Positions 3,047-63,800 of a stretch of 64,000 nucleotides of DNA are shown one piece after another; positions within the stretch are counted from its first letter, which is position 1; every line of letters starts with the position of its first letter. A program made the translations under genes and the position numbers. Source of the DNA: Ophelia neglecta (lineage: Eukaryota); NCBI GenBank assembly GCA_965285935.1, contig OZ260663.1, positions 68,200,001-68,264,000 on the forward strand, in the 5' to 3' direction. The notes below the pieces were generated by a model. The model was not told where the DNA came from. It searched no databases and saw only the letters and a program-made list of their open reading frames with translations.

Positions 3047-3326
3047 GTCACATTAACCAGCATCGATACCGTACGGTCTCCCACTTTGTTGTATAATACA
3101 TCTATAGGTTGCAATACACCCATTATATCGTGGACAAATCCAATTGTGCGCAGGTCCAACAAGATAGCTGCCCCTTTTATTTCTACGATGACGAGACTAT
3201 TACGTGTTATATGCGTACCACTGCGGAAAAGAATAGGCCTACATCCTCTGACGACCAGCATCGTTTGATGTACAAAGGACCAAATCTTTTGCGTTTCTTT
3301 GACATGTATCATGTCCCACGAGATCG
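3047..3326 (+). pseudogene. Candidate (possibly decayed) exon encoding a PAN/Apple-like Cys-containing segment
   Basis: AG at 3106-3107 and GT at 3327-3328 bound a fully open 219-bp phase-2/phase-2 segment: LQYTHYIVDKSNCAQVQQDSCPFYFYDDETITCYMR...GPNLLRFF. An alternative acceptor (ctaacag, 3046) extends the same frame across one TAA at 3094. The CA..C.F.Y......CY spacing resembles PAN/Apple, but one expected Cys is missing. Confidence 0.3.
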
Positions 3327-4510
3327 GTAATGAACGAAAGAGCGGGTCGGCCACTGAAATAAAAACCAAGAAACATATACCCCTTTACATTACATAAAAA
3401 AAACCTTCTGCCTAATCTAAGGCCGTTTGCTGCAATCTCCTCTGCACAAAAATGACATCGGCTACCGCTCACTCTCGTACCAATTTATCCCCATAGGTTT
3501 ATATATGTCATAGTATTATGTTAAAAGGGCTGCAAAAAATCGAGCAACATTTCCCCAAACTGTCAAAGCGAATGTTTGACCTAGATCGATCCGAGATTAC
3601 ATTACATCATAATAAACATATAGCTCGACAGTTGTGTATGGCGCGGTACAAACCTTAACATTTTAGTCTTCTGTTTTTAAAACTGCCTCTGTTCGTGTTA
3701 CGATGGCCAAGCTGGGCAACCATTCAATAATACATCTCTTGTTACCTTTTCGGCTGTTACGAGTTACCCAATTGACACTTAGACTAGTCGATTATGCTGA
3801 CGATTTATGCAGGCTTCATTATAATTGAGGAACGCAGATTTGCTAACTGGTTTCGGCCTGATTCCAGTGCAGTAAGACAGTTGCGAAATGTTCTGCCTTG
3901 ATATATTCAATCGCAACTGCTCCATGCAATGAAATCCTGCCACAACCAGTTGTCCCTGTCTCGGCTGCTCAGCTAGTGAGATCATGACTTAATAGGGTTG
4001 TGAAAGGATCTCCACGCGATTGTTGACATCGGTCATCACATAGGAAAGTCACGTAAGCCCTGCACAAATTGCAATCTCATGGTGCCATTTGTCTATTGTG
4101 GAGCATAATTAAAAAGCATTCCGACGAGATAGCATTTCCGTCTGTTTCCGTGCAGGAATCACTGTGTTGGTGCGTGCGAAGGAATTTGAAAGCCAAAACT
4201 TGGTTAGCCCCAAAGGAACGCGCTTGCGTTTTACAATAGAATGAGAATGTATCATCAAGCCATGACAACCGCAGTCTACCTTAGTCTTATATATGGTGTG
4301 ATTAAACACGCCATCTGACGTGAAAATATATCAATTTTGGAAATTGAGTAAACTGATGATCATGACAGGAGTAACACGGGTATCGAGTCGATGCATTAAC
4401 TGCATTGGCTGCATCCTGAAAACACGATGGCACAAGTCAGAAATGAACTGTACCCTTAAAACAGCCGGCAACGGGCAAGGCTGTTTTACGTGTATAGGCT
4501 ATGCTTATAA

Positions 4511-4792
4511 TGTGACCAGCCCTGCATGAAACTATATATAGTGAAATTATTCGAGCTCAGCAACGAAAACATTTCACAGTGAGAAGTTTTTTTTAACCAA
4601 GGGAAATACAGTTAATCGGTGCGTTCTTTTTTTATATAGTTAATGCATCCAGGTGACAGGTTTTAATTGGTTTTCAATAAACTACTGAGCTCTAAACTCA
4701 ATTTCATTAGCATCATGCAGATTTGATTGCATGATAAACATATAAACCACTGTTTGGTAAGCAAGGTCACGGAAATTTGCAAGAGGGTCACT
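4511..4792. mobile_element. Degenerate palindromic MITE (GTGACC...GGTCAC ends)
   Basis: The left end tgtgaccagccctgca pairs imperfectly with the right end tgcaagagggtcac. An internal mirrored pair is present: gagctcag (~4553) and ctgagctc (~4685). Confidence 0.35.
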
Positions 4793-6762: not shown

Positions 6763-9700
6763 CTTCTGACCCCTTCGAAGCATCTCCAGGCGTACTTGCT
6801 TTCAAACGTAGTTGCAGACTACACCTAGGATAGACTTCTACTTGCCCTGCAATAATACCACTGTTCTTGCTTTAATTTTCATAATCCTACAGTAGCGATT
6901 GAGTATCTACGTCATTGGGAAAGTTGGTATAAGTATAATTACTCTAAAGTGACTTATAAGCCTAGGTTAATCTTCTGTTCTTGTCTATAGTTCAATTACT
7001 TTTGTTTGTACATGTAAGATATGTCACTGTTTTAAACGAAATACATCATATTGATCTGATCTTGTCGGTCGATGACAACTTTCAGTCAGTTCGCCATAAT
7101 AATGTAGGCCTATATCAGTAAACCTTCCGACGCCAACAATAATGTAGGACATGACATCTGAATGCCAACGAGTCTATGATTTCAGCGCAAATTGGTCTTT
7201 AGTCTTAACGGCCTCGTCATCTAGCACTCACTCCCAGCAACGGCCTGTCATGTGATATTGAGCAGACCTCTCGAAATTAGTGGCGATTGAACTTGACCCG
7301 ATAGTCCGAAAGGCACAGGTAAGTTGCCTGAGATGTTGTTGTCATCCATCTTTAGTTCTTACACTTACATTTTCTTGGATCGGGTTGGAAGAAAGAAATG
7401 CCACTTAATTAAGTTTATTGATAGGCCTATTTGGCCTGTACAGGCCCAGGTGGGAGTGTGGGTGATGATTCACTCTAGTGATTGAATAAACTACCATTCA
7501 GTACCGTATGGTAGTGCGGTAATGCCACTTCCGTTGTTTATATGCTTTATGTTTTCAATATTTGCTTGTTAGTTTGTCTCTTACATGATTGAATATCTGT
7601 CTTATGTATCTGATCCAGTTTAGTGAGCTTTTAAACGGCAACATAAGCAAATTTTATCCACGTACTGAAAACAAAGAGTTTCGTTTGGCTATTTTATTTC
7701 AAAATAGGCCTATGTATATCGACGGCCCGTTGGCATGGGACAGTGGCTCGTCAGTCGTCTGGTAAATCAGCCGATGAAATGCACTATCAGCGCCCTGTTA
7801 TTGGCGGCGAGTTATACCCGAAGTATTTTCTTCGCCTATAATCTAACAAAATGACAGACATGACTCTTGCCGCAGATGTGTTACAAAAGGAGATCCGGAG
7901 GGGGTATCTCAGTTCGATAGCCTATGTTTGTAACCACCCATGATGTTGATAGGCATATTTACTGCATGACCTTTAAACAAAGACTGCCGATAAACAAACA
8001 ACCAATGCATCAAATAAGTCCGCACCCATCGCCTGCCCTGCTTACGAAGAAGACCACGTGTTCATTCTACAAATTTACAATGCGTCGGCTTCCTTTGAAA
8101 CAAAGCTATACGTATATCAGCCTCTAGTCTTAAAGTTTAGCACAGGAATGGATTCCTTGCCATCAAAGCTAGTTCACTTGTTCCAGAAGAGTGCGAGTAC
8201 CACGTTCTTCACGAGCTAGGCAATATCCCAAGGGACTGGAATTTCTCTCTGCGTGGAACTGACGTTATATTATAGATTACAGATTAGATGTTCCAACAGC
8301 TTCCCAATGTGTTTATCAAGGGCCTGATTCGCTGCAGGCTACGTATGGTTGGTCAAGAATTCTACACACTTTTCTCTCCACTTCTATCTATATTAATGCA
8401 AATAAATGTGGATTCTCCAGCCATTCAGAATATTTTATGTATACATCGTATTTTAGGACAACTTAACTTTATGTTAAATGAAGCTTTATTTACAGGCGAA
8501 TTTAAGCGATTACTCCGATATCCTATAAAAGGATAATAATAGATTGGCCTACATTATGTCTCACATATAAAACCAAAGTGATTGTACTTCTTCTTTGATA
8601 TATGAGCAATTCGGTTCCGTACGTGATACATGTAGCAACATTCCTCAATCTTCCACCCGAGGTGTATTGAGATAGCAACAATCGGCATGCTGTTGGTTTG
8701 TAAGGCCTATTGAAAAAAGGTGTGATTTTGAGTGCAAACGTTGGTCAGATTGAGCAAACGTATAGTAGCTGTAATTTTCGGAACGAGCCATGGATTTTAG
8801 AAAAAGAACAAGCACTTTATTAGAAATTCGTCCCATTTCTTCACGCTGGTGTCAGTGGATTTCGAACTGTTCCTCTCGTCTGCTCACTAAGCCCGGTAGC
8901 AGTTCGATAGACATGCAGGCTTCATTTCAATTTGAATGTGACTCAGACTTGTTTGGCTTTATCAGGCTCAAACCGGAAACAAAAGAACGCACATATCAAC
9001 GATGCAGTCAAAGCCGCTATTCACTCACAGCAAGGGAATCAATTTTGATTTCAATGACCCACATACTTAGGTCACACGACACCCCTTGTCATATCAAAAG
9101 GCTGGTCATAAGTCTAGTGGGTATGAAAGGTTAAACTATGTCATGTCAAATCCGAATTGCATGCGTGCGGACTTATATCAGCGGAAATAGGGCTTTGGGG
9201 CAGTTTAATATAGTCGACAGAAAAGGGGCAATTTGACAACTGCAGTTATTTATGGAGAGGCGCTTCTTATCCCTATTAATAACCTTTGGAAATTGGTCAT
9301 GGATAGTACGCCTTTGATCACCGTTGTTGCACCAGAGCTTCGCCTGAAATTGGAAATTGACGATGCAATCAAAACAAGCATTTAGTCTATCCACATTTAC
9401 CCATTTCTGAACACTTTGAGGTGACCAAGCATGCCCCCTGCAGCGGCCGGCTAGTCCAAGAGCGCACAAATATTAAACCTCTACAATTGGAAAAGGGCAT
9501 TTCTGGGGAATAGAGCTGATCTAAAGTATAGAGATAACATAATTGAGACTGGTCAGTGCTCATATCTAAATTGATAACTGTAGTACTCCATCAACTTTTC
9601 TCTTCCCTAAGCTCCAATTTCCGTCTGTTGTGGCTATGGTGATATTTGATGATAAGCAGATAGGAAATCGTGTCGGTAATCGTCCACTCAACCTAATATT

Positions 9701-10210
9701 TCCCATGTGCAGCGTTGATGTTTAAAATAAATTCTGTTAAAATGAGTGCAATTTTTGCAGAATTCGCATGGGAACCATCCGATACATGCAATGATTGTGT
9801 TTCTCATTGTTATATCAGCTTGTTTCAATATTTAATGGTTTGCAATGTTTGTTTGATCATGTAAGCAATCATTGTTGGCATCTCCTCTGACACGTTCCTT
9901 CCCAAGACTGCAGCGAGCAGGCCGTAATGCTCCTGTGTGGAGTTGATGTGAATTATTCAGTATTTGCCTCAGGGCGAGTTGCTTGTGCATTATGACAAAT
10001 AGGATCCATGTTTCCGAAACACGATTCATTTTACTAATTCAAACCTGGACGACAAAGTCAATTTCATCACCAACATATTATCATAAAAACGATTCTATTT
10101 TGGGAATTTCAAACAAATATTTATAAATGTATATGTATTAGGCACATTGGTTTATGTCGTGTTTTGTTCCAGGTTCCTCGTTGACGTAACCAGTTTAAAA
10201 AAAAATTTAA

Positions 10211-10600
10211 ACCAGCCACATAAAGTCTGGAGACTTTCAGAAAAAAAGGGTTAAAATCATACGATGTTAGAAAACAGTGTGCACTAGCTACTGCTGACGC
10301 ACATATTGTCTATGTGTAATTGATGTGTTTAAAAAAAGGCTGCCTCTAATTAGTTTGCTATGTATGACGTTTGACCCATTTAAACCCGAAGGCAAGTGAC
10401 GCGTTTTGCCAGAGCACTGTGTCTCTGGGTGCCGCTAACTTCTGGTGGTGACGTCATCGCCGAAAGTAGGCCAAGCGTCATTTGCTTTCTGGGCCAATCA
10501 GCGTTCACCATGTGAGCGCGTCACACATGCATAGATTACATATTTGATGCTTCGAGGTTTTTTTTCCCCACAACTAGTCTCCAGACTTTATGCCGCTGGT
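10211..10600. mobile_element. 25-bp inverted repeat pair, probable DNA-transposon/MITE termini
   Basis: accagccacataaagtctggagact (10211-10235) matches the reverse complement of agtctccagactttatgccgctggt (10576-10600) at 23/25 positions. Confidence 0.65.
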
Positions 10601-13600
10601 ATAAAACTCAGCTTTCCTAGTTTTTGTGATAAACCAATTAAATATAAATCATAAAAAGGCATATAGTAAGCAAGAGTGGTGTACACTATTTTTCGTGGAA
10701 GAGAGTTGAGAGTGATGGTGTAATTCACAGACACTCGAGCATTGATCGCTGATTACGGTATTTTTACCTGTCCATAGGGTTTACATCCAGAAGTGTACTT
10801 TGGCATGCCTGGCATTCCGGCCATAACCAATATCTTTGGTGACCGAAAATAAGCGAGTGATGCCTCTAATGCCTTGTTGAATGGGGAATTATTCAATCTG
10901 CTTTCAATTAAGTGGCTGGTTTTTGTTATTGTGTACTTTGTCTTTTCTTTAATATAAGGTGAAAGCTTGATTCCATTTTTTCAAATTTTCTCATAACGTT
11001 CTTAACCCCCAATTCATGTTTGTCCACCTGCAAACTAAACTTAGTTTAGATTAAGAATTATGGTGAATTAGCAATCAAGAATAGTGGAGGTAGATTGGAA
11101 TCAGGGTAAGCATAAACGGAAAGCCTCATTTGTTTCACTTGAGCTTTAATTGCCATAGAGGTTATTGACACTGTACAGGCAGGGTAGGATTTACCAGACA
11201 TACAGGATACCGCCGGCAAAATATCGGGCGCAATGATTCACCCGGCATTTATGGACTCTCAACCATCCGGTCCTCGAGTCATTATACAAATGACCTCAAA
11301 GCTCTCGGATGAAACAGGCTCGAGTAATGCATTTACCAAGGCCAGGGCTGGTTTATTTTTGAACTGGGTTTTCAGTGTAAGTCCAAAAATAGATTTTCGT
11401 GGCCCGACTTTGTCGTCAAAGTAGATCAAAGATCGAGGTATAATTTAACTTGAGGAGCCTCGTCAAGCCAAGATCTTTGTATTGTTGGTCCGCCCCCCAT
11501 TTAATAAGTCCTTCCTTTCCATTTTTCATCTATTTGTGCCCAAGACTAGGATGTAGTCTGGCCTCAGTCGAATAGCGACATTTTGTTGCGGGCGCATGGA
11601 ATCGAACGCTTTGCTAATTTTCGCGGAGTGCCAGGAAGGGCATGAATCACAAGAAAGATGACACTCATTTGTTAGAAGTGTCGGAAATGGGCGAGTTTTA
11701 GGAAATTTAAAACATTTGAAGCAGGGTGTCCCAAATATAAAATGACATTTAACTGGAAAAACTGGAGCTTGATATTTCACAGGATTACTTATAAAATAAT
11801 TAGCAAAAGAGGCTTCTGTCACTTAATTTTACAGTTAAAACCAGAAGCGAAAAGCCACACACTATCTAAAGAAATTAACTGTATAGGTCTTTTCATGATG
11901 AAAAAGTGTCAGTAGAATAAGCGGCAGAAAAATAAGCTAATGCTTGTATATATGCGACTGAAGAATGACATATGTGTCAATGTCTCGCAGGTAAAAGAAT
12001 ATATTGATTACAATTTAAGAATTATCAGTCTAGGGGCCTATTAATCATTTCGTACTAGAACTATTTTGCATTTATCCCTACTTGCGATATATTTTATAAA
12101 CCACCTCAAAGCGAACATTAGGGTGCGGGTGCATGGTTGTGGGTGAAGAACGAATTTTAAAAAAATAGCCCAAATCAAAGTCAAATATAGCTATATATAG
12201 CTTTTTTATTAACGACACAAGTAAGCCAATGTCATCTAATTCGAAGTCAAACCTTGAAGCGTTAGTCGGAAACTATGGAAATAGATTTAGAATTGGAGTC
12301 ATGAATATTTTAACCAGCCTAGCCCTGGCAGGTCTCATTCCTGAGCGATATCAAGATGTTTTCCCCAGATTTGTCATATCCTAATGCTGAGCACCATTGA
12401 TCTCTATGGCAATCACTCTCACGATGCTCCTTCCTAAAAGAGCAACACTAAATTATGTGCTTGCTTTTATCTTCCATTGGCCTTTAGTTATTAACTTCCT
12501 GGGTTGGATAATAATTACAACCTTCAGATTCCTCATTTATGGTGAAATGAAAGACATCTACCGCAGAGATTACAATGCCATTTCTAAAATATTGCTTCAA
12601 GCAGACAAAACAACATTTTCCTTATGTACCTTATACGTCTTCCCATTTCAACATACTACAAAGCATGAAAAGACGTGTCGATCTTTGATCAGGTCTGCAG
12701 TTTATCTTCCATGATTTATTGGAAATCTCCGGGTGTAAGATTAGCACTTTCTGATCTAAATATATCTGATAAATATTCCAACAGTGCATTTTTCCTTTCC
12801 TCGGCATTTTAATGAAAGCCTACCCTCCCTCCTCTGTGATAATGATCAAATAAATGTCAATGTACTTTTCTCCACAGGCCTATTTCGGTAATCGGGTTTA
12901 AAGTGAGATGAGTGGGGGATGGTCCAGTATGGTTTTATCAAACTACAATGAGTAGGTTTAAAGTCAACGTGATGTAGCGTGTAAACCTGTCAACCATATA
13001 TGAACATTTATAGGCATACTTGATATCACACGTTTTCTTTAGGATAACTTTCCTCAATATTTTTTTGTCATTTTAAACAAAACACCAGTCAACATATGTT
13101 GGGTAATATTTGCCTGAGACGACATCCCACACGTGATTAGTACAGGCGGGCTGGGTTACCCGGCAAATTTACATTGAGTTAGCTCTGTGGATTTAATAAC
13201 GAAAGGAAGATGACAATAAGAATGAAAACACCAAGGAAACAAGTCCATAAAACTGCCCCTGTCGATGATATATGAGTGATCATAAGGCACCCGGGCCTTG
13301 GGTAAGCATACACCGGATACCCTGCCTTTCATTCGGTATTAGCACGGTAAGCCTCGGATTATAAGGAAGTCGTATTGGTGCAAAGGCCACATGCTCTTGC
13401 TGGATATTGGGACCATGTCGCGTGGATATCAAGTCACAGTTATATCAAATGTCGTACGTTGCGGGGATTACTATCGGGGATCAACGGACACTGCCCAGTT
13501 GTATCTAATTAACCCACTGGGAATGCTTCATGGAGATAAGGGTGCTCTCAGTAGTCGATCACCTCGAGAGGAAGAGGTCATCTGTCAGGGCGTAACGTCC

Positions 13601-16217
13601 CATGGAGACTGTGATCGTCTGCCTTGCGGTAACCTACGGGACATGCATAAATAAACCAGATGGGACCATCTCCTTTAAATTGGTCGATAGGCACGAGGCC
13701 AATTACATTGAATATAAAAGTCAAACATTTTGTCGAAATTCGGTTCAATTTTCAAAAACAGCCAAGTTTGCCATTTAGCTAAGTATATAAGATGTATTGC
13801 GTTATGATTTGACACTCAATGGTAATATATATTTAATAAGTGCAATGTTAGTGTTGTCAATCAAACTTGGACTATTATGTACTTTATTGAATAGTACATG
13901 CAAAATACATATCATCCAACTTCAAAAAAGAGTATTGAACATATTTTAGAACATATATGTATATATTGTTTATGTTATAGCATTTGAAAGTCCTAGATAT
14001 TTTCAAAATATCTCGATTGAACCCGTCTGAAACTCGAGGTCTGACAGGATAGTGTCATGACTTGCGGATATTGCATGAGTAGTCCCACCTTCAGTGCATG
14101 ATCGTACCTCAACCAGTCACCCATTTACATACTGACAGTTTTGTTGGTCTCACAATGTTTAATGAAATAGAACAATATTTATAGTTTCTGCATGGGATAG
14201 TGGCTTGATGCATGTGCTCAAGTTGAACAATAATAGTTAATATTGTACTTTCAACCAAGTTTTAAATTCAATTTATATAACTAAAGCAAAAACCAAAAAC
14301 ACGAAGAAATAATAAAAACCACAAATGAAAAATAAATAAAAGATATAAGGATGTAATTAAGAAATAAATTCGAGACCGAAAACGACGTATTAAAGAGGGA
14401 AGTAGTAATTAAAATGACTTTCATTATGTTGTTTATCAGCAAATATCAGATTCAGTTGGTGAGCAATAAAGGCTATGGTGACTTTTGAGCCTTGAGTGTC
14501 GTGTGTGCGATTGATCTATTCAAAAGGTTTACATTTACTTTTTCACTGGGCTTCCACCAATATGAATATGAGCACATTAGAAGATTATTTTTAAAACGTC
14601 TTTAAAAAGTCTACGATAAATGGTATTAATTTTCATACTTCAAAACTTAGCCCATTTTCTGTGCAGAAATATCACATATCTCTTCACTGGCTGAAAGGCG
14701 CGCCCAACACACCGTTTCCACTTTAAAAATACGCCTTTCGAGGCTTAACGCTCTAAACAGTAAGAGTGCTGGAATCGCTTCGTCATTGATATTAACATCT
14801 CGCGCCATGGAGCACGGATTATAGCCTTGATTCAGCTATTCAATTATGGATGTTCTACTGGGTACTAAAGCATCGAAAATCTTCAATTGTGGAATTTACT
14901 GCCCGTCTGTCTTTGTCTGTCTTTCATGAATTACATAGTAGACATTCTATTTAGAGTCGTCGGGCGCCACCAACAACCATGTTAACCCAATTCAAATAGT
15001 TCAGTTCTCAATTCACAAGACTAACTTGGCCCATTTCTTTCAAATCGTTTAATATAAATGCATCTTGAAAGCTTTTTGCGCAGTCGGTTATCCGGACCAG
15101 ACCAATATCCAATCATGCTTTCCATTTTTATAAGCTGTGAAGTGTTATCCAAATCCATACCTAGTCTTATAGTCTTGCTCATACGTTTAGCACAGGAATT
15201 TCTATAAGTTATACGCAAATATATAAACATATAAATGAACGCATTCCGACTGCATAGCTTTGTAACATAGTACCGCTGACAGCTATATCATGGCTTATTT
15301 AAAACTAAACGTTCATATTATATAGAAATTACATTTTCTTTAACATGAACATCTTGTTTAATCAATGCAATTTTTGTCGAGACCATCCTGGTTTCTTTGC
15401 TTACTGTAACAATAAGTGAAAAATTGAACCTTGTAAAATTCCAAAACGAATCAATATTGATAGACTATTAAAGTCTAGTAGTTATTTATTCCAAGTTTTC
15501 AATAGTCCACAACTGAATAAATAGCCTCCTATATATCCGTTCAGTGCTTTCAGCAAATACCAGCCGAGAAGCTTCACTTAACAACACTGTTAGCTTTAGG
15601 TACTCCTGCAAAATTACAAAAACTCTCCATCAACGGTTGTATGCACATGTTATTCAAAATAAGTTGATGGTAATATTTTGATGAAGGAAATTTACATTAG
15701 GTTGAATACTGTATTGCAGTGAAAATTGAGCACTGAAAATGGCGCTTTCCAACAGGGTTTTCATGTTCAATATGCAATGGAATCATAAACCATGGCTGTT
15801 TTCACTATGCTACATATTTCCCATTTAGACGATACTTTAAATAATATGGACAAAGAGTATTTAGTCTGTTTATATTTATTTTGTGTTTTTTCTAATGTAT
15901 ATCCTTATTGCACAGTCCATGCGACGTTCCCTATATTATCTCTCTGGATTAACTGAAGTATATACGTGAAAGCACTAGGCCTATATGTTAACATATTTAT
16001 TTCATCACACTAAACGAGAGCAAGTTAGTGCCTCCTATACACTGGTTTTACTCCAATGATGAATATGTCGCTTTATCCTTTAAAGTAATTGAATACATTA
16101 TTATTGATCGGATTGGTGTTGCTTTGTTCGCCGGCTATGTATTCCGATGTTACGAATGGGTCAAATTCAGGAAACATTCATGGGCGGATTGGTGTCGCTA
16201 TGGTACAACCTAATGGG

Positions 16218-16306
16218 TACCCTTCGCAGCAGAGGCTAATGCTTATCGCATAGCTTCTCCGCTACAGTCGAAGAGAGCGGAGCTGTGTACTCTGCTACGA
16301 AGAGAA
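16218..16306. mobile_element. 89-bp hairpin MITE with 9-bp target-site duplication
   Basis: TIRs tacccttcgcagcagag / ctctgctacgaagagaa, with an inner stem ctccgct/agcggag. Flanked by an exact direct repeat cctaatggg (16209-16217 and 16307-16315). Confidence 0.75.
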
Positions 16307-17879
16307 CCTAATGGGTAGTGAACTACATATTTAGTGATGGCCAACATTGTTTAAGACAAACTGGAACATAACTAGTCACTTGTGTGGTTTTTTTAATTTT
16401 TACCTTTTGATCTCGTTGTCATATTGTCATCCGCGTTTAATATTAATATGTAATCATCGGGCGTTATTTGTTGTTATGGCATTTGTGGGTTTTTTGATCT
16501 TTCAACATATTGTGTCTTTATCGTGTGGACTAACGCCTTTTAATGTGTACTAATGGACAGCCATTTACATGTTTTCTCCTAATTCCGTATAAGTGTAAAA
16601 TCACAGTCTATCAATGAGATGTGGTAGATGATCGTGGGACATTCGCATTAACCTCCTCCAACCTGTGTCATGGCTTAGTTGGGCTTTCTTACAATAGACA
16701 GAACCTGTAACCAAGGCGCTGGGGCAAGCACTAGACTGCACAATCAAACACAATTCTACCGTATGTAACAACTGAAGGGCCATTTCCGCAAGCATGCGGT
16801 CTGTGGACATATATTATTTATTGCATACCTTATGAGAGACTAACCATGATTTTCCAATACCTAGTGAACTGACATCATCTTTATAATTCAATGTCCGCCG
16901 ACTTACACGAATCCAGATCCGGCAATATCTGCATTTTGCCAAATATTGATTGGTAAAGTGTAGCTACACGCAGTGATGACAATCACTGCATGCAGACTTT
17001 CCAAGCACTGGACAGAAGAGGAGGGAGGCGGTGGGTAGTAGGGAGGGGGGTGCATACAGTTAATAAAGAAATGGCAGTAATTAGTAGCGAGATAAAATAG
17101 GGAAATGGGGGCGGCTAGGAAGAAAAGTGCAAGTAGGTAGAAAGATAAAATGGGGTTGGATGAGCTTGAAATGGTGTGAGGACAATTTGGTGGGAGTTGG
17201 AGTATGAAGGATTTTGGACGATGAGTTTATATAACGGTTTGTGGTATACAGCAGTGAGGATTGCTCCTGAAAGGGTAAGGTCGTGCCTACAAGTGGATTC
17301 TGGGAATAGGGTGAGGGTCAGAACCTGCAAAAGAGGGCATTAGAATGGGAGGAGGGAAAATGCATCCTTGCACAGCTGCTCATTGACTTCAAAGAGCATA
17401 TTAGGTAGACTATATAATAAAGCAAACAGTGCCTGCTAGACAAGTCTTATTTACACAAATCAATTCAAAAATCTAGCCACTGCCCAACAGCCAAGGTTCA
17501 TGCTGACGTGCTTATAATTTCAACACCTAACTTAATGATATATTAAGCCTGTTTGTTTATTAATTCCATAGTACTTCTACTGTGCTAGTTTTCATTAATG
17601 AATCCCGGTTTGCATATTTCTGGCCAAAACCTGGGCTTGGCCACCTCACCCTATATGCTTATTAATTCTAATTTTGCCCAGTAAGGAGGTAGAAAATATT
17701 ACTTTCAATGTATGTTTCCATAGTCACTACTTGGCTTTGGGATGGCCTACTGTTTTGGAAAATACATCAATGGAAGCCCATAAACTAGCCTGTCTATGTG
17801 TTACTGTTATATATCCAGTTGTATCATATTTACGCATTTATACAGTATTTAAGAGAAATAAAAAGAGAACTAAAATGGA

Positions 17880-24018: not shown

Positions 24019-24042
24019 CATATATATATATATGTATATATA
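24019..24042. repeat. (TA)n microsatellite
   Basis: catatatatatatatgtatatata. Confidence 0.8.
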
Positions 24043-52100: not shown

Positions 52101-52560
52101 AGAAAACTGAAATTTGAATTCGCGTATTTCAATTAGTTTTTGAACATCTGGTGGAACGATAGTGTAATCAGACAATAGTTATAGGCCTATACCAGCATAG
52201 TATGGAATGGCATTTTTTTACCTTTTAGAATGTGTAGAGCCGATCTATATGCACTGACATTCATACCGGTAATACCCAGCCTGGACGGTATTGTGGTAGT
52301 TAGAAGACAGACGACTGGTTCCTGTGAGCAAAATCAATAGGACTGCCATACTTTGGCGCCATTTAGGGTGTGTTGTATCGTAATATTCGTGTCATATGAC
52401 AGGTTTTGCGCTAGTTATTTTATATTTTTCTATGCTAATAAAAATGACAATTAATTTGGATACGTATGCTTCTCACGTTTTCCCCTGTGGCTTAGGCATA
52501 TAAGTTGCCTGATGACAACTATTAAATCATTTACTATTTAAATCAAATCTACCAACAATT

Positions 52561-52680
52561 ACTACTGCTGCTGCTGCTGCTGTTGCTGCTGCTGTTGCTG
52601 CCGCTTTTGTTGCTGCTGCTGCTGCTACCGCTCCTCCACCACCACCACCACCACCACCACTACCAATACCCCTACCACTA
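52561..52680. repeat. Compound trinucleotide microsatellite (CTG/TTG)n-(CCA)n
   Basis: ctgctgctg...ccaccaccacca. Confidence 0.9.
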
Positions 52681-54318
52681 ATACAATTTTCAACAGCAGC
52701 CAACCTGCCTTAGTTGATGCAGAAATTTGAATGTCAGCCAGCCCGTTAGCCTCCTCGTAGATTTATCTGGCTGTATTTCCAGTACCTATCTATAGGTGTC
52801 CTTTAATGGACGTAACATGAGCTTTACGCAATTGTTTGTACGATTAATGATAATCTAGCTCAAGCATGGTAAATGTAATCCTGCCAATCTCAATTATAAT
52901 TTGCCTAGAACTTGTCCGATTTTATGAAATATCCCCCAGATTTTTGGTTTTTAAGCGAAAACGATTGGAAAACAGGTTCATCGACGTCCCCGCTAAATGA
53001 CGGTCCTCTGATCGGCCTTGGAGCAAGGGCATGCAAACCTTTCGGAATTACGGATTATTTTGATGCTGCAGCATGCGACACAATGTTAAATCCGCAGTAA
53101 ACTGTTCAGAGAGCTGAATTCGTGCACATGTTGAGCTTACATGATAAAAAATGAAAAAATTCAATAATAGGTTATATTTACCCGATCAGCATTTAAAGAA
53201 ACTTGAAGGACATAGAAGATGAGAAAGGTTCAAGAAAATCTAAAAGAAAATCCAGTAAGAAACTAACCATCAAACCATCAAACCTTGTGAATTTAATAAA
53301 CGTCTAGTTATTCGGGATTAACCTAACCTGGTTCAGGTATTAAATGAAAAGGCTTACTCGTCGAATCTCTCATATGAACAGTATAAGTTTAAATTAAGCC
53401 AGTCGGAATCTAAGAGTTTTATGTTTTCCTGTTAGTGTACCACTAACTCACAGAAGATGAGAGGAGATTAGGTTTATTTAGTCGCCGCACAGCAAGGGTC
53501 ATATTTATGCTTTACATAAGAACTTTGGCAGTGTCGTTCACCTTTATAACGGGCATATTATGTCGTCCTTCATTGACGCACCTTGGCGACAGACCACCTG
53601 CTATTGGCCTTTTTAGGTCCCAAAGATCTACGGGCATGGCCACTTCCGCTGAAGTTCACAAATTTATTGCCCATTTCAGCCATTTACCAAGCTCGTTGCA
53701 GAGCTAAAACTTTCGAGTTTTTAATATAATGAGGTTGGTTTATTTACTTCATTTTAGCCGCAAGTGCAAGTGCCAATACTAAACCCTCTCCTGTCGTAAT
53801 TTAGGAAAACGTTTACTTTAAAGGTAGCTTCCAAGGGACTATCACGGTTAAAAGTGTTCAAGGAAACTTCATCAAATGGCCCGTTTCTCCATTGCCTTCT
53901 TGCTTGAAATTTGCTCTGCATATAAGGGGAAGATTAGCTACTGTCGCAGGACGGTAGCAAGTGTAATATAATGATGGTCTTTGTAATATATCATTTATAA
54001 TAGGGGACACGGGCAGGGAATATATATGTGATAAAAAGTTGGCATTCCCCATGCGCACTTAATTAAGTTTTCAGTTTTTTTTACTTGGCAATATGGAAAA
54101 CGTGTGTAGACGTTTGATGAAAAGGGCTTTCAGCCTAACCTGGTTCCAAGGGGAGGGGTAAGTCCAGTATATCACAAATATTTAACTCGGACTATAATAT
54201 CAAATATTAATTTTAAGGAAGGTTTGAATAACACATAAATATCTTATGCGGATTAATTGTTTTCATCTCGTCGAATATTTGTTATATCTATTGTTGATGT
54301 TTTAAAGGTAGCATAACA

Positions 54319-54401
54319 ATAGGCCTAGCAGCCTTGTGATGGTCCAGTTGGGATTAGGCCTAGCACCTTTTGAACGGTCCAGTGGCTATAAGCCTAGCAG
54401 C
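54319..54401. repeat. ~35-bp tandem repeat x2.3 containing TAGGCCTA
   Basis: taggcctagcagccttgtgatggtccagt / taggcctagcaccttttgaacggtccagt / taagcctagcagc. Confidence 0.8.
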
Positions 54402-57400
54402 ATCGAGCAAGATTTTATACAAAATGGACAGTCACCTTGAACATTGATCAAGGTCAATCATGGTTTTAATTTACTCATTGATCTATAGTAGAAATGACAT
54501 ATTAAATTTCAATTAAATATTCAGAAAATGTAGCCAATGGGCAGTTTATGTTGTAATAGTACACATAGATTAAGACGAAAAGAATGAAAACATACACACT
54601 TGAACGAAATCATCTGCTATAATATTCGCCTTGCAAACCAGAACGTAGATAATGAAATCAGCTACTTTATCATTCTCTATCGTAAACACGCCATATTCAA
54701 TCTCTTTTATAGTCTCTGTTTTGATTAAATAGGCATGGTTGTAACAACGAAATTGCGTTTTTACTTGATGGATTAATTCTTTATCTAATTGATTACTGCG
54801 CAAGGCAAAAGACTCACGATTAGCAAACCGAGGAGGCCAATCAGAATTTAGTATTGATATATCGGAGTAGCGACTATATCAGCAGCACTGTTGTCCTATT
54901 GCTTTATGCATCTTTTCTACAATTACTAAATGTATACCTTTTTGGCGCTAAGAGGTAAGTAAGCTCAATTTGGTCAGTAAATAAGACATAATATTATAGG
55001 CTTATTGTCGTCCATTTCTTTCTCTAATGGAAGTGCTCTTTCGAAGTTAATTGCGCCGTTGGCTGGCTTTCAGGGCATGTATGATAGAACAACGTGTAGG
55101 GACTACATCTGCAATCACCTGGGCGTATGGTGCGCTCTAACTTAACTGGAGAGAGACTGGCGCTTTCAATGAGCTGATCAATGAGGGCAAGGTCAAGACT
55201 ACGTTTACCAAGGGCAGCCCCAAAAGGTCAACACTTCTGCGAGGCATTAGGCATCTCCATGACCAGAAAACCCCTGTAAGTGCGAGGAATTGATCTATGA
55301 TGACTTTACAGCAGGGATATTCACATCGGATGAGACACTGCCATAGATTCCGCACGGATTCACACTAACACCTCTGGCTTAGCTGGATGCGCCACGTTTA
55401 GAAAGGACGCGCCTTAAGCAACTTCCGGGGAGCCATCATGGTGGGCAGCTTTGGGAGAGATCCATTTATAAATCAAGTCAACCCTTGTTCCGATTCGACC
55501 CACATAAAACAACCTTTGTCGCTCCAGTTGCATTAAGAATGCGCTCCCATATTTTCGGGAGCGCACTAATTTTTTTAGCTGTGAAGAAATCAGAAAACAG
55601 CTTATTGTATTAGCCGATTCACCTAATTCGTCTGTTGCTGTCAAATATATTAATTCAAAATATACTTGTGAACCTATTCTGTCACTTCTATGTACCACAC
55701 ATTATATCAAATATATCGATCGCCCTTCTATATGTTACTCCCTACCCCTTGGTGTCTGTTTAAGCAGACGCTTGAGCATGCGCCGTGAGTCCTTTCTGAA
55801 CACTACTCGCGTTGAGTTGTGTAAAAATGAAACAACCGTTGTGTCGTTACGACACAGTTGCCAAAGCCCCAAGGGTTTGCCGATGTAATTTATAGACACG
55901 ACATAATTTGTAATTAGACATAACAGATGTGGCCTATGGGAATAACAACTGGCTTCTGATTGTGAAGAATGCTGCTACAGTTGATGGTTTATCTTCTATT
56001 GACTTCCTTCTTCTTTCATTACTCCTATCTCTTTCAAGCTTTGCCTAATCACAGAAGCCTCCCAGTCTCCGGGTTAAATCCCCTCTCTGTTGGGTCTTAA
56101 GAAACTGTCTGATATCAGATGGATATAGCTTCTACAAATATTATAGTGCAAGATCTTTGGCCAGTTAACCCTGGTGCCTCATAAAGGTCAAGCGAGTTGT
56201 TTCCATGCCATCAATCCGAATTGCATGTCAATATAGCGTGTCCCAAAAGCTGCATGCGATTATGTTGATTTGAACTAGGATTGCAGAAGAAGGAAACAGA
56301 TGTCTTATTCAAAGGCATTTGTATTATTTTTTTCTGATAGTCTGGCTGAGTGAACGATCCACCGACCAGCGATTAGCCATACTGCTATGGCTCCAGTGTC
56401 TATTTGTGTGCAATAATTGTTATGGTCAAGTTCATTCAAAAAGACCTTTCACGGTGACTTACAAAAAGTAGAGGATGTTGCATTATTCGCAACACTGCAC
56501 GTCCCGATGTGGATTAACCCGTGCGTGTTGTCGGAGAGCCGGGGCAGTGCGCAATGTTCTGGGTTCAAAGCCATCCCGACAAACACGTTGTGACTGTCAG
56601 GACATTGCCAATTGATTACACTTCATTTGTCAAAGGTGTCGCAATCATGCCCCTTGCTAAGGCACTCACACCTGGGGATAGGGACATAGAGAAACTCACG
56701 GCAGGACAAGAAGTCTGTTTATGACGTGTCACGGTGTCCAGTGTGTGCAAGGCTTGTCTCTTGTTTCTAAGTCGGCACAAATCTGACGACCTAGTATTTG
56801 GACGACATTTAGAACCCAGGAATTGGTTTTCTATGTCTCTACAGTTTCTCCTTTTCATATTATCTGTTTTTGGGCCATCAACATACTAAAGATGTTTAAA
56901 GAATGCGTCCGACTTAGGTAAAATATATGCAAATATACTCAAAATCTCAGTCTTTGCAAACGATGTGACAATTTGCGTATTTTACTTTGTGCGAAAAGCT
57001 TGTAAATTGGATCAACCTTTCCATGCTGAAGTCGATGTGACGAGCTCGTGTGTTATGACTCGATCTGATTTGGGGCTAAATAAGCATAACCAACAGGCTG
57101 GCAAACAGCAGGGAATGAGCGCTTGCCTTCCATGGACAAAATACCTCAGCCGCACAAGAGAGACGGACGTGTATTGTTCATCTAATAGTTTCTGTTGCAT
57201 TGAACTGAATGAGCTGAGGGGGGTGGGGGGGGGGGGGTTTGAGTGAGTATTAGATCAGGTATTGGTTAGGTGGAACGGAGGTAGGAGGGGAGGAATGGGG
57301 ATAGGGAGTTGATAGGAGGGTAGGGGAAGGGGCCCATACAAAATATCCGATAGAAAAAACTATAGTGTTAAAATTGAGGTTTACTTCATAGGGTCTTTTT

Positions 57401-57559
57401 AATGGGCACCTACAGTAGTATTCATTACTATGTTTTATTTAACAATAATTATAGAGTACAATGTATTTCCACTAAACTAAGGTGTTTTCCTTTTTGAGGA
57501 AAAAAAACCAATAAAACTATTTATTTTTAACTTCATTAAAACTATGCTGAATCCCGAGG

Positions 57560-58600
57560 TACAAAATGCCTTTCCCGGCTATTCGTCTCGCTGTATAAAT
57601 AGCTGTATAAATGCACCAAATGTCCACAAATGCTACGTGCTTTCTCCCCTTCAAAATTATCCTAACACCGAGGCACAAACCAAGTCGTGGCAGAGACCTC
57701 CAACCTCTTAAAGTATCAACCTCCTCGCCGCAATATTGAGAATCATTTATGTCCTGTCTCTGCAAATACCACCTTAAGGAGCCGCGGAGTAAATGTATTT
57801 CTGTTTACTTTCTGGTCCGTCCATACCTCCTGGAAATTGTCCTTATACAATATGCTCTTCACCAAGTGTGCCCAAGTAGTTTGAGGTGATAGGAACATCC
57901 TTCGTAAACATCATGAGTAAGTGTCCTTAGTGTGGACAGATCCATTTACCTACACCAGTAAGAGACCGCCTTCATTTCAAGTTTGCCGAAATTGGGACTG
58001 ATTCAGGGCAGAGATATAACAATTCACTTTTTGTAGATGGTTTTAGGCCCAGTATTTTCATAGATAAATCCTCTGGAATGCGTATATTTCATCATTTTGG
58101 TCAACTCCCCACAGTTCTCCTCCATATGCAATCACTGCGTGGTCCAACCATGCCTCAAACAAACGTACTCTATCTCCTAGTGGGAAGTAACACCGGTAAA
58201 AAAGTTTCTGAAGTTCAAAAATAGTCTTTTGGCCCTTCTGACAAGGGTATCAATTGCCTTGCCCTAACCTCAGTTGAAATTAAGGTCGATCCTAAGGTAG
58301 GTGAAATTATTACCAGTTTAATATCGGCGCCAACAAAAAAAGAGTCTAGGAATTCTTATCCATAAGCCTTTTTATAAAGATCAGAATATTGGGGGGGGGG
58401 GGGGGTTTTCGTTGATACTTTGAGACCCCATATGTCACAATAAAGCGCCAAATGTTCAATCTATCCTGTAGCTGATCTGCTGTCTCTGAAATAACCACCA
58501 TATCATCAGCAAACTGCAACAGGCATATCATGAGACCATCCCACTCTGCTCCAATCTCTGACACAGTTTGTCTCAGATGCAGCGACAAGTTATTAGACAT
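57560..58600 (-). mobile_element. Decayed non-LTR retrotransposon ORF2 3' part (RT FADD motif onward; RTE-X-like, clade uncertain)
   Basis: The minus strand gives ICLLQFADDMVVISETADQLQDRLN, then frameshifted IAYGGELWG, KILGLKPSTKSELLY, YWCR, WAHLVKSILYK..FQEVW and GWRSLPR. This is the typical order of RT thumb and C-terminal motifs. Confidence 0.85.
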
Positions 58601-60495
58601 GATTATTATGGACCCCTTGTGTTTTTGTGTTTATCATGCACTATTTACTAAAATATCATAGCAGTTTGAACATGTCCGTAATTGACTCGTGATGCCCTAC
58701 GATTCCCTCGCTAGGGCACACACTATTTGCCAAGTACTGGCTCTAATATAGAGTCTTGAATTCAATGTTAATACTGCTGAGGCTTAATATAAACCAGGGT
58801 GTTTTTCTCACAAGTTAAGCAAACCCATCGTCTTATCTATTCCATGCACGGATATAAAATCTACAAAACAAAATTAGTTGTTACTTCAACTAACCATTAT
58901 CCTTTGATGATTTTTATGAGTTTCATATTTACATTGATTCCCAAATTAAAAGTTTGCTACATAAAGACGTTGCATGTCCCAGAGCAGGAAAAAGGGCTCT
59001 CGCAAAATTCCAAATTGGAAGTGGATACCCGGCGGACAAAACCAAATCAATCATCAATAATAGTCGATTAAATCGGTCCGAAATCATCAGGAACCAGCAG
59101 TAGCAGGCTCAGAAACACCAATCCTCGCTAACAGTATATACAAACTTGTAATGAAGTCAATTACATTACAATCAAAGTGATATCCCACGCAAGGAGAAGT
59201 ATTTAACAGGTTTCCAAGATACGAGTCAGCACAAAACGAGTCTGGCTCAGGAGAGCAACAGCGATCTGTCCTTTTGTTGTCAAGCTCCTGGGATAGGCTT
59301 ATATGCTGATAAATACACCTATGTAGTGTTTTTTCGAGTACGCCCTTGTCGTGTTTATCCAAGAATTTCTTCTCTTCGTAACAACTAATCTTGTTATGGA
59401 AGACATGACACGGCCTGCGAGGAAAAGAGCTCGGAAGACATACAGGTATCAAGGCCGTATCCAACCGGATATGTTCCTCTATGCCTGCATGGTCAAAGTG
59501 TCATCATATAGATAATCATGCTATAGTTTTAGCTATATTATCTTATATTATGCTTCATTCTCACCATATTTGAGCCCATGATATCATAAGCGATATGTAC
59601 TAATACATATATGTAGGCATATAGGTGTTTAGATATTCTAAATGGCGTATATGAACTAGGAGTAGCCAATAACGCCAGGTTACTGGCCGAATCTGACTAC
59701 ATCATTACTATCCTTTTTGAGTTATTTATTGGACAGATAGACCCACATACAAACCAACATACTGACACGAAATAAGATGATATTAGCAATGTAGTATAGG
59801 CCTAATCATACATGCCTATATTTAGAAAGAGGCTGCTAGGAAGCATTCAGACACGTTTTGCAAAACACTGTTTCCAGTCCGTCATATAATCATACAGTCC
59901 CCTATATTCAGTCCACGCCCGCATTAACTCACTGCTTGTTTCTTAGCACACGAGGGGCGTAGAGTGCGGGCTGTCACGCAATGAATAAGGAGGGGCAAAT
60001 CAGGGTTCAGAGATTACACCTGGAGATAAAAAAAAGTCTCAGGGTCGATGCCTTTTCACGATGACAAATATCACACAATGTAGAAATTGCTTCACCAAAT
60101 GTAAATTTATATATATAATTCATCGTGGAATTTATGCTATTGAATATTAATTTCCATGGAAAAAAAGCTTACCTGTCTTTCTGTGCTATTTTTTGCACGG
60201 CCCCTCCCAAAAGGGCATGTTCACCGATTCAACATATTTTCGATTTCAATATCTTAAAGACAATTTTGTTGGCTCCATGATGTTTTTTGCATACCACTAA
60301 ATGATTCAAATAGGAATCAAATTAACCTGTTATGGTATTTGTCATTTTATATAATTAATTATAAAATAGCTAAATTATTCCTGCTTTAAACCACCCATTA
60401 ATAAAATTAACTTGTTCAAGACTTCGTTATTAGTCGGTTATTCAACAGAATACTTGACGTATTATTAGGTGATTAGTCCTAAGTTCAGGTTTTGG

Positions 60496-60535
60496 GACTA
60501 GTAACTCGACTAGTAACTTGACTAGTAACTTGACT
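60496..60535. repeat. 12-bp tandem repeat x3+
   Basis: gactagtaactc gactagtaactt gactagtaactt gact. Confidence 0.85.
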
Positions 60536-60755
60536 CGAGTGATAGAGAACCCCTGAAATCGTTTTACGTAATATTGTTATTAAATATGCTGTAAGATTCA
60601 TCACAAAAACGAACATGTGTTTAGAATTCCGTGGGACTTAGACCACTACCAACCCAAACATGGCTATTTAGGCCAAGCATTGATGGTATTTTGCCTAGTG
60701 ATTGAATCCTTTCAATCTGGGTTCTGCAATGTGTTTTGCGAGCCCAGTACCTGAC

Positions 60756-60897
60756 ATGCGTCAAGGATCAGTCTGAGGTCCAATACTGCCTGTGACATCG
60801 GGGCCTAGAGTTGATCACCTGGCCTTGGTCACATCGTAAACATGTACCCTACTGCTTTTGATATCACTTCGATGCTGACGACTCCTTAATATAATCA
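60756..60897 (+). mobile_element. Short decayed L2/CR1-type reverse-transcriptase fragment
   Basis: QGSV*GPIL (cf. QGSVLGPIL), LGHIV (cf. LGDII) and YHFDADDSLI (cf. YHFYADDTQL) occur in the correct order across frameshifts. Confidence 0.55.
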
Positions 60898-63800
60898 AAT
60901 ATCACAGTCACCCAACCACAATTTTGTTTCGTGATTTTGCATTCAACGTGCATGAAAACCCGCTGTACCGCTGCATACTGTCCCCACGGTGACTCGGCAC
61001 AAAGGCTGAAAATATTTTCAGCCATTTTTTTTCATATTTATGACCGTTTACCCGCACATCAGCCAAGTTCCATTGGCACGAGGAACGATGTGTCACAGAG
61101 GTAAACAGAATTACCTAACATAGTCTATGGAATTTCCCTGTTTATTTCATTCATGCAAAAAAACCTGCCTTTATCTCTAGGTGTGGAAAATTATGCAACA
61201 AGTCCGTGGTGGTACTTTATACTGAATGCCTCTGACTTCCAGTACTTAAAGAAATGCCTTTGGGAACATTTAATAGGGACAACATGTTTGCGACAATATG
61301 AAGAGTTAATGTGAAGTGTTTTTGATTTGCGGATCACTGAGAGATGGGCACCCGGGGTACGGGTGAGTACATTATAATTGGGCTGGCCTAGAAACTTCTA
61401 CGTCGTCTTCCTGTCATAATACACGACAGTTCCCCATCCCTTACCGGTAATGACCGGTCTCCAGTTCGCGATTTTAAGGAAAGGACCAGGACGGTTTTGT
61501 TTTTTCTTTCACAACACATCCATTTTCCCCGTAATACTGTTCTAAAAATGGGGACCCAAATTGACAAATCAATACTAGTACAAATACACATTTTTGTTGG
61601 TCTTCTGTGGAGTAGTAAAACATGACCTAGCAATAAATATACAACCCTAAACGCTTCGTAGCCAAATGAAAAGAACAGTTATTATCATTATAAATGCACT
61701 TTTAAACATATTAACAGCTTTCAACACGTGATTCGCCAGGAAGAGCATCAGTTTTTTACAGTGTTTTCTACAAACATCAACTTTATAGGCCTGTAATGTT
61801 TTCCGTATTTTGCGTAATATAAGCCTAAAAATAAATACAAAAATCGAAGCAACACTGCTTGAATATACAGTGTTTTCTTTATATAGATAGATATGTAATC
61901 AATTGTCTTCTTTTCCTTCTTATCCGCAATTGAATTTTTTTTAACTAACTCATCATTTTTGAGATTCTGGTTATACTATTTTTCAAATGCGTCGTTAATG
62001 TTCTTATCAAAATAACCAAGAAAACAATGCTTCTCTGTAGGTCGCCTGAGGTGCCCAATGATTGGTCACCTCATAAGATGTATACCTACCCGACTGATTT
62101 ATCAGTGCTCGTACACTCTGATGTCTACCTAAGGTATTCAAATTACCGTCGAGAACTCCAGGACAGTATAACTCACTGTCACGCACATAAAACAATGGAT
62201 GCTTAATGAATATAGAGTCCTACTAGAGACTCTTCAGTCACGAAGGAAAAAGAAAACTAGAATGTATTCGGACAATGGTAGATTAGTTTCTCTTTTGATG
62301 TAAGAATTAATGTTGGCGAAGCATATAAGAAATATTATTATTGAAAACGTTAAGATCGTAAAACCTCAAATATTACCACTGCGTCGGCCCTGATATCGGT
62401 AAAGCCCTTTACGCGTATCACCATGGCCCCGGTTAATTTTATATGGAACTTTACCCCTTATCTCTAACGACTTCTCCCTCTAATACATTTTATGTAGGAG
62501 AGAAATTACCAATCTGTATAATTTTAAATACACAGACTAGTAAAGATCGCCCCAAGTTATTAGTAGCTGTTAAGAGGGATGACCGTGAACCAAAACGATC
62601 AGAAAAAGCTATCCTATCATTGTTAAGTTTGATTTCGTATTCGGTGACAGCCTTTAAGCAGGGAAGGCATTGCAGTGAGTTCAACATGATTTTTTTAGCC
62701 AAGTCCCAGCCATAGTAGTTAGTGGGAGTACCCATCCCGCCATTGTTCCACCTGATTATATTGATGATGGTACTACGCAGGGCGTTTAATCGAGCGGGAA
62801 ACAACCAGGTATTAAATAAACAGACAGATGACGTAAAATGTCTGCCAGAGACAAGGCCGGGCTCTGTGAAGTGACACCAGATGGCAATAAAATGTTTCAG
62901 GTCATCAAATGATTCCTGACATTGTTTGAATAACACAGGACATTTGGACCGAATATTTGTCATAAGTAATTGAATCCAGGGAATTGTTTGGCGGCCAATT
63001 AGGGTCCGGTGCCCGTCAATTTTCTGCAAGACTGTCTTTCTAGATGAAATACAAAAACTCATCGGTATCCTGTTAGTGCGATGATTATATTAACCGCCAA
63101 AAGCAGGACATTTATTCCAGGAAAATGGCGGCTTGACAGCGTCCTAGGTACCATGCGCTGCGTCAAATCCGCTCGGAGAATTTCCTATAAACATGTTTTC
63201 CATTCTTTTAACAATGTCAGGGTATGTTCAGAGATATGTACTAATGGATCTGAATTTCGTCATATCGTGGTTAATGCATCAGGAAATCAAATTTGCATCG
63301 GCAAAAAAAGTCAATCGTGAGGGATTGTTACGTTGCTATAATACAAGACTGGTATGCACAAGACAGGCCTGTAACTTGTGCTGCGGGCAACTCTCTGTGG
63401 GTCAACCAACCACACAAGGTTTATATATAGGCCTAGAACTGTCCTATTGTCGAGCATCACCTAGAATATACTGTATTTTATGATTTTATGGAAAAAAATT
63501 AAAGCAAAAAGCAGGTATTATTGTCTTATTTGCAATCGCACAAACGTACTACACGGTGTAGTAAAGGCACTCCGCGTAGGGACCAGTTTGAGAAGTGATG
63601 CCCGCGAAATTTGGAAAGTAATTTCGGTCCGCGATCATTACACGTGACCTCTTTTTAAGCCTAAGATTATTATATATGATATAATATTATGTTCTTTTGT
63701 TACAGCAAAGTACAGTACATAAATGAAAATGCGCACATTTTTTAACCGCTTAAGAAAGACAGAACTGTGTGTGGTTTCTGGACTGTATAGACTCGACAGT

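Follow-up and report, generated by a model that had tools for sequence, protein, structure and literature searches.

A GGCC-centred palindrome in the Ophelia neglecta genome as a probable excision footprint of GG-ended pogo elements

The word in the window and in the genome

A stretch of 64,000 nucleotides from Ophelia neglecta (contig OZ260663.1 of GCA_965285935.1, positions 68,200,001 to 68,264,000; hereafter the window) is strewn with the 8-bp palindrome TAGGCCTA, a GGCC core between two TA dinucleotides. The window, for which open reading frames only were listed, yielded no identified gene. A preliminary description had reported at least 21 exact copies against about 0.7 expected, a 25- to 30-fold excess, and recounting bears this out: exactly 21 copies are present, every start that it had given is correct, and there are none besides. 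The computed expectation is 0.7-0.85 under order 1-2 Markov models (0.85 at order 2), or about a 25-fold excess, and among the 256 palindromic 8-mers the word ranks first in enrichment. The GC content, put earlier at ~37%, is 39.0%. The variants TAAGCCTA/TAGGCTTA, of which at least 11 had been claimed, occur 11 times, comprising the ten previously listed and one at 54389. The copies, to which no strand is assigned, are as follows.

3234..3241, TAGGCCTA, likely excision scar (exact match; no paralog in the sampled genome)
7105..7112, TAGGCCTA within single-copy DNA (exact match; genome-wide search)
7422..7429, TAGGCCTA within single-copy DNA (exact match; genome-wide search)
7705..7712, TAGGCCTA within single-copy DNA (exact match; genome-wide search)
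15976..15983, TAGGCCTA (exact match)
26163..26170, TAGGCCTA (exact match)
28990..28997, TAGGCCTA (exact match)
35395..35402, TAGGCCTA (crossed by a gap-free, second-haplotype-like contig with 15 other letters and 0 gaps)
37497..37504, TAGGCCTA (exact match)
37989..37996, TAGGCCTA (exact match)
41814..41821, TAGGCCTA (exact match)
42167..42174, TAGGCCTA directly after an old ~160-bp repeat (exact match)
43295..43302, TAGGCCTA inside an old repeat of 66-76% identity (exact match)
44244..44251, TAGGCCTA (exact match)
48015..48022, TAGGCCTA (crossed by a divergent contig with 13 other letters and 0 gaps)
48713..48720, TAGGCCTA ~100 bp from a high-copy repeat resembling a short interspersed element (SINE) (exact match)
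52182..52189, TAGGCCTA (crossed by a divergent contig with 10 other letters and 0 gaps)
54320..54396, local ~35-bp tandem triplication containing TAGGCCTA twice (54320, 54355) and TAAGCCTA once (54389)
59797..59804, TAGGCCTA (exact match)
63428..63435, TAGGCCTA (exact match)
6957..63663, 11 dispersed TAAGCCTA/TAGGCTTA variants, likely mostly decayed scars (starts 6957, 25928, 34368, 36272, 39374, 43145, 54389, 54997, 59294, 61820, 63656)

The words at 54320, 54355 and 54389 are units of one tandem triplication and therefore go back to a single origin that was copied. They alone have a common origin, and 1.93 Mb of sampled genome contains no paralog spanning any of the 21 copies, in agreement with the earlier statement that the copies are not one repeat family and contrary to the second refutation named at the outset, a concentration of most copies in one or two known repeat consensus sequences; positions 6900-7900 are single-copy genome-wide. 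The divergent contigs are public contigs from one sample, aligned to positions 35001-55000 and consisting mostly of repeat matches. They cross 35395, 48015 and 52182 without gaps, as expected if these copies are old and common to both haplotypes, and the matches listed for this interval (12 indel rows) include no insertion or deletion at a TAGGCCTA site. Two old repeats of 66-79% identity lie at ~43250-44240 and ~42000-42163, and many paralog alignments begin right after the 43295 site or end right before the 42167 site.

Markov models of orders 1-6, trained on 940 kb outside the window, predict 0.81, 0.78, 0.85, 1.4, 3.3 and 6.8 copies per 64 kb, respectively. Masking the word in the training DNA lowers the expectation to 0.8-1.3 (1.1 at order 5 and 1.3 at order 6), and the Poisson probability of at least 21 copies is 7e-11 at a mean of 3.3 and 9e-6 at a mean of 6.8. 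An order-5/6 background, named at the outset as what could dismiss the excess, is thus ruled out. An order 6 model trained within the window predicts 19 copies, a circular value because the word itself makes the 7-mers. Across the 762-Mb genome (seven large chromosomes), TAGGCCTA occurs 69,501 times (9.1 per 100 kb) and the reversed control word 3,592 times; the density in the window is 3.6 times the genome mean. In 80 evenly spaced 10-kb loci, 90 copies were counted, with at least one in 44 of the 80.

Origin by insertion at TA

The origin of the word was examined by aligning each TAGGCCTA in sampled genome loci (L-numbers below; C-numbers denote contigs of the assembly) to paralogs without it, and 27 of 241 sites were informative. 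At nine of these the paralog has a clean 6-bp gap, so that TA on one side corresponds to TA-GGCC-TA on the other. The nine sites represent seven independent events (L069, L153, L195, L235, L304 and two in a pogo family), of which that at L304 is weak (71% identity). Eight control TA-palindromes displayed a 6-bp gap at one of 51 informative sites, giving a Fisher P of 2e-4 for 9/27 or 0.004 for 6/24. On these alignments, TAGGCCTA arises, at several comparable repeat sites, by the addition of six letters to TA, the outcome that the preliminary description had named as favouring footprints.

The whole genome was also searched for insertions of three to eight letters at one fixed TATA site in each of two high-copy repeats, which gave 18 and 29 matches, with 7 and 7 for the controls. 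TA-CATG-TA accounted for 3 and 10 of these, together with four one-change forms, TA-GGCC-TA for 1 and 1, and TA-GATC-TA for 0 and 2. Against the GGCC copy in the SINE-like repeat, every one of 14 aligned paralogs has a 6-bp gap, and one of these paralogs lies within the window; the GGCC copy in the second repeat faces a gap in its one paralog of 71% identity. Copies of the GA-ended pogo family described below are distinguished by two TAGGCCTA insertions, so that one such scar was multiplied inside this other transposon. A minority of TAGGCCTA copies was made or spread by tandem repeats and by scars lying inside other repeats. Head-to-tail runs of at least three TAGGCCTA yield 19 matches genome-wide, most of them in one ~1.5-kb tandem array (runs at C7:68991397-68999730, C1:113647166, C1:131393232 and C9:45266551).

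Single-letter variants of TAGGCCTA are in excess at most positions, with transitions prominent. The excess of 200 +/- 18 one-change variants over 138 exact words (~1.45 to 1) corresponds to ~15% decay per base, a rough upper value because of the masked background. The variants had been described as a decay or assembly series; the spread over most positions agrees with decay and not with assembly. TAAGCCTA/TAGGCTTA also display the flank bias of the exact word, with T at +1 in 48%.

HIP1 of cyanobacteria, likewise a dispersed, highly iterated 8-bp palindrome, originates by substitution and is linked to a methylase. A comparable methylation/repair ratchet, or selection for a binding site, could build or keep TAGGCCTA by substitution, and both had been put forward at the start. 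Two observations speak for this explanation: 18 of the 27 informative sites differ from their paralogs without a 6-bp gap, and TAGGCCTA density rises with the observed/expected CpG ratio (rho 0.41, P=2e-4, n=80 random or evenly spaced 10-kb loci, L051-L090 and L157-L196; one of nine correlations run), whereas that of TACATGTA does not (-0.15). The 18 sites, however, are for the most part tandem units in which GGCC-like words already abound, and the cases in dispersed repeats are mostly clean insertions; the spread of variants over most positions resembles neutral decay. The CpG link fits insertion into open, unmethylated DNA equally well, as with the insertions of Passer near start sites (PMC9976928, as far as accessible), with later selection also possible. 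Substitution is thus seen mainly in tandem-repeat units, neither the ratchet nor the selected site is upheld as the origin, and we regard this explanation as highly unlikely. The difference from HIP1 lies in the arising of TAGGCCTA by insertion at TA.

Matching element ends and a GG-ended pogo clade

Among palindromes of the form TA-xy-TA in 1.17 Mb, four cores are clearly raised: GGCC 12-fold, CATG 4.7-fold, CCGG 3.6-fold and GATC 3.0-fold. AATT, AGCT, ATAT, GCGC, GTAC, TCGA and TTAA lie at 0.9-1.2 times expectation, CGCG and TGCA at 1.3 times, and TATA at 2.7 times as a simple repeat. The inner bases of TAGGCCTA equal the terminal bases of TA-duplicating elements in this genome, and the four words match four end classes (GG, CA, CC and GA). 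TACATGTA (TA-CATG-TA) occurs 117,701 times genome-wide and TA/CAGT ends, the slash separating target from element, 30,747 times; TA/CCGT elements match the CCGG core. The GA class is a TA/GA pogo family with 72 ends and a 764-aa transposase (L183:6241-8382, L319-L329), comprising ~2.1-kb non-autonomous and 4.8-kb autonomous copies. Small TA/CAGT-ended elements of very high-copy families also lie in the window, at 19531-19700, 26867-26942 and 38453-38623. The three-base forms TAGGGCCCTA are not in excess but at expectation, and TAGGTA (1.15-fold) and TAGGCTA (1.3-fold) only weakly exceed it, which fits a dominant two-plus-two product. TAGCTA, at first seemingly enriched, has no flank bias, falls to 1.15-fold after masking and was set aside.

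The bases flanking the word are themselves biased. At 150 TAGGCCTA sites, +1 is T in.52, C in.21 and A in.15, +2 is A in.49 and +3 is T in.45. This pyrimidine-A-T bias is common to TAGGCCTA, TACATGTA (188 sites) and 169 intact TA/CAGT ends, and background TA is without it. Another TA opens 32% of TAGGCCTA arms, and the preference for T at +1 derives partly from this adjacent TA.

These features bear on a transposon-free origin, in which host repair or non-templated insertion would add GGCCTA at breaks in TA-rich DNA. Insertion at TA, the TA-rich context with its additional TA dinucleotides and the small number of surviving elements would suit such a process. The core is nevertheless fixed and independent of the flanks, and the four raised cores match four end classes, with most other palindromic cores at expectation, so that we consider host repair a very improbable source.

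A clade of GG-ended elements was traced through relatives of the GA-ended transposase, beginning with a 671-aa frame that has a TA/GGGGAGAGCGGGG end 1.3 kb upstream. Its ends read TA/GGGGAGA in many distinct variants, and it includes intact copies and ~400-bp derivatives; a degenerate search for GG ends gave 41 matches, with 15 for the control. Four copies have paired ends, each with TA-flanked terminal inverted repeats of ~26 bp.

C12:72688257-72692816, paired GG ends and an intact DD35D frame of 647+ aa
C1:19488112-19491869, paired GG ends
C12:72189861-72194844, paired GG ends
C84:5691-8056, paired GG ends

All seven further GG ends that were retrieved are TA-flanked. A looser search yielded 866 ends against 348 for the control, ~400-bp pairs among them; no GG-element remnant was found in the window. 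At the surviving ends, 44 of which are independent, +1 is C in 23, T in 10, A in 10 and G in 1 (counted by hand in the first 100 of 173 matches, with G-rich chance matches and tandem copies dropped by eye). A pyrimidine followed by A is common to scars and surviving GG ends, but the pyrimidine favoured at +1 is T at the scars and C at these ends.

The GG-clade transposase matches the Pfam domain DDE_1 (E=2e-20), and L338, like 18 of the 19 metagenome relatives scored, has 35 residues between its final two D (DD35D). HTH_psq as well as HTH_Tnp_Tc5 stays under the curated cut-off in L338, from which the first residues had been left out; both pass it in L329, the GA-ended sister, and many homologs are listed with them. 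At E<=1e-50, 1,824 homologs were retrieved, and those with names come from several animal phyla (snail, bryozoan, tunicate, Hydra, tick and insects). A tree of 32 transposase cores, which contains no named references and has two rows that are long or short, separates G-ended from CA-ended elements with 100/100 support; GA ends appear twice among the G-ended rows. Sister pogo families (L334:669-1052 on the minus strand, and L330-L333) possess one more frame upstream, which has a HIRAN domain (Pfam PF08797; E=1e-6 in L334, assigned by DNA similarity in L330-L333). The ends of three sister families were not reached within the 1.5 kb examined.

The clade and the word were also found together in metagenome contigs (the best 80 of 520 with transposase relatives, collapsed to 54 clusters). 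Automatic pairing gave a TA-flanked repeat in 28 contigs, starting with GG in 23 of them, and a TAGGGGAGA-like end is present in 36 of the 54 clusters. In 198.7 kb, TAGGCCTA occurs 55 times (1.1 expected), spread over 22 clusters, the control word 0 times and TACATGTA 12 times. Five clean or near-clean 6-bp insertions lie between paralogs of these contigs, in which C at +1 is favoured at both scars (.40) and element ends (.55).

Taken together, these observations make it likely that TAGGCCTA is the excision footprint, in this genome, of a Fot-like DD35D clade of pogo elements with TA duplications and GG...CC ends. A TA-targeting transposon with such ends had been among the candidates named initially, and both the 6-bp insertions at TA and the search for matching elements, which recovered the clade with its TA/GGGG...CCCC/TA ends, support that proposal. 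Two-base overhangs at the cut are known from work on Tc1 and Tc3. By analogy, an element would insert at TA and duplicate it, its excision would leave two element bases (GG) on each flank through a two-base stagger, and end joining that retains both pairs would give TA+GG+CC+TA. Germline insertion and excision, recurring through a long period, would then have produced ~60,000 intact scars plus decayed ones, the elements meanwhile remaining at low copy or being lost.

Footprints of this kind are known; the present contribution is a specific candidate element, together with the agreement of four words with four classes of ends. ITm elements duplicate TA, and after end joining a footprint stays between both TA (PMC2874221, as far as accessible). 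The Tc1 footprint of Caenorhabditis elegans, taCATGta, likewise combines TA, two bases of each element end and TA, and is called rare in the accessible text of PMC3520976, which cites Eide and Anderson 1988. In the present genome that word, TACATGTA, is raised beside TA/CAGT ends; the difference is that the GG word reaches ~70,000 copies, pointing to the GG-ended clade. Fot and Fot-like elements, surveyed by Gao et al. 2020 (PMC7386202), have a DD35D triad with HTH_psq, HTH_Tnp_Tc5 and DDE_1, and several fungal, algal, oomycete and amoebozoan members have GG-starting ends, one with a TA duplication. The present clade has the triad, DDE_1 and GG-starting ends in common with them; the survey's accessible parts report them outside animals, its supplementary file 3 contains no end starting GGGGA, and footprints go unmentioned there, whereas the present clade occurs in an animal and has GGGGA ends. 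Passer, another member of the pogo superfamily, prefers TA in a palindromic AT-rich consensus, is biased to start sites and has footprints in cells that measure 0-4 bp (PMC9976928). The CCGTA ends given for it (PMC7386202 supplement) fit TACCGGTA; unlike the present clade, however, it has CC ends and other DNA-binding domains, and it would yield TA-CCGG-TA rather than TA-GGCC-TA (both sources as far as accessible). Judged by titles and abstract starts outside subscription journals, no paper was found that treats TAGGCCTA as a genomic word or footprints at genome scale; from their titles, the embedded occurrences of TAGGCCTA among the matches listed seem to be primers or oligos, and the accessible portion of PMC4700943 does not cover AGGCCT. 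The GG clade may already be catalogued in Repbase or Dfam.

Several observations weigh against this assignment. The ~60,000 excess TAGGCCTA face roughly 250-500 surviving GG elements, a ratio above 100:1 where that of the CA-ended elements is ~6:1; +1 is C at the surviving GG ends of this genome but T (52%) at its scars; and in the two young repeats CATG insertions exceed GGCC insertions 13 to 2. Fourteen local tandem units and four dispersed copies with point differences make up the gapless majority of informative sites, and the window's own copies are without spanning paralogs. ACGT (1.9-fold) and CTAG (1.7-fold) are mildly raised with no matching element found. The metagenome contigs probably stem from few, related hosts, and the set was assembled without a negative control of contigs picked by another transposase. 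No trio of filled, empty and scar alleles was seen at one site, and excision was not observed. The ratio, the +1 mismatch and the predominance of CATG in young repeats suggest that most GGCC scars predate the surviving families, or derive from other clade members or another family.

A rival reading makes the word the scar of some other, older TA/GG family, extinct or unrecognised, with the surviving pogo clade minor or coincidental. The same ratio and +1 mismatch favour such a family, as does the advanced decay of the word. On the other side, two end-finders run over 1.7-1.9 Mb gave no other TA/GG family, the DDE_3, DDE_1 and DDE_Tnp_4 copies with determined ends included none, the many end variants of the pogo clade are what long turnover predicts, and the clade and TAGGCCTA co-occur in other hosts. 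We therefore judge such an older family unlikely and retain the Fot-like pogo clade as the preferred source.

A wider proposition, which we regard as evenly poised, is that a single clade of GG-ended Fot-like pogo elements, widespread in animals, wrote TAGGCCTA across animal phyla, and that the TA-bounded palindromes most in excess in animal genomes (CATG, GGCC, CCGG and GATC cores) record past cut-and-paste activity by element class. Excision footprints are usually regarded as rare laboratory by-products. If the proposition holds, such words would form a readable, datable ledger of events far exceeding the surviving copies. The scars would be biased to unmethylated, regulatory DNA, where they could be mistaken for binding sites or become them. 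In the present genome, ~60,000 TAGGCCTA and ~90,000 TACATGTA footprints would be a main source of short insertions and of the highest-ranking 'motifs' that motif searches return in such genomes. Scars allow past transposition to be counted and dated once the elements are gone, and a candidate transposase with intact copies makes a long-visible, unexplained word testable.

Other candidate elements and repeats

An abundant GG-ended unit is a 512-bp repeat with GGTTGCAG ends (L058, L194:1182-1679, L277-L306; e.g. C1:973475-973987), present as solo copies and ~1,412-bp multimers with a 4-bp TNNA duplication and a KolobokP-like architecture (PMC9587614, as far as accessible). Its 1,561 exact GG..CC ends, often TATA-flanked, and the 21 occurrences of TATAGGCCTATA in 1.2 Mb would favour it as a producer of TAGGCCTA. 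Its 4-bp duplication (TTGA, TGTA, TATA), however, predicts 8-bp scars where the insertions are 6 bp, TGTAGGCCTGTA and TTGAGGCCTTGA are absent, and TATA on both sides is near independence (21 vs 15.4). KolobokP excision is moreover reported, in the accessible part of PMC9587614, to delete flanking bases. This unit is a scarcely credible source.

Further elements were tried and rejected as the source of TAGGCCTA. Pogo/Tigger and Tc1-like copies end in TA/CAGT or TA/CAGC; ISL2EU-type copies have AT duplications (PMC4482050, as far as accessible); an element at L318 has TATA/GT and fits the description of Sailor in the accessible text of PMC8533490; and TWA-flanked GGG-ended small elements predict 7-bp scars, with TTAGGCCTTA at 5 vs 2.1. 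For several copies of IS630-like and DDE_Tnp_4 type, no ends could be located. The ISL2EU-type elements include young multi-copy members with intact ~530-aa frames (L197-L228, L237, L240). The TWA-flanked elements have an internal G run (L035, L051, L082, L109, L114, L186, L195, L234, L236, L241), and tracts of ten G are in strong excess across the sampled loci.

The window also contains a very high-copy SINE-like repeat (48819-49094), which served as the reference for the empty site in the paralog comparison, a CTG/CCA trinucleotide tract (52565-52680) and three minisatellites (28718-28947, 18899-19057 and 43336-43397). A ~474-bp satellite with inverted blocks and 0 TAGGCCTA inside starts 70-100 kb to the left of the window (C5:68100001-68130000, L031-L033).

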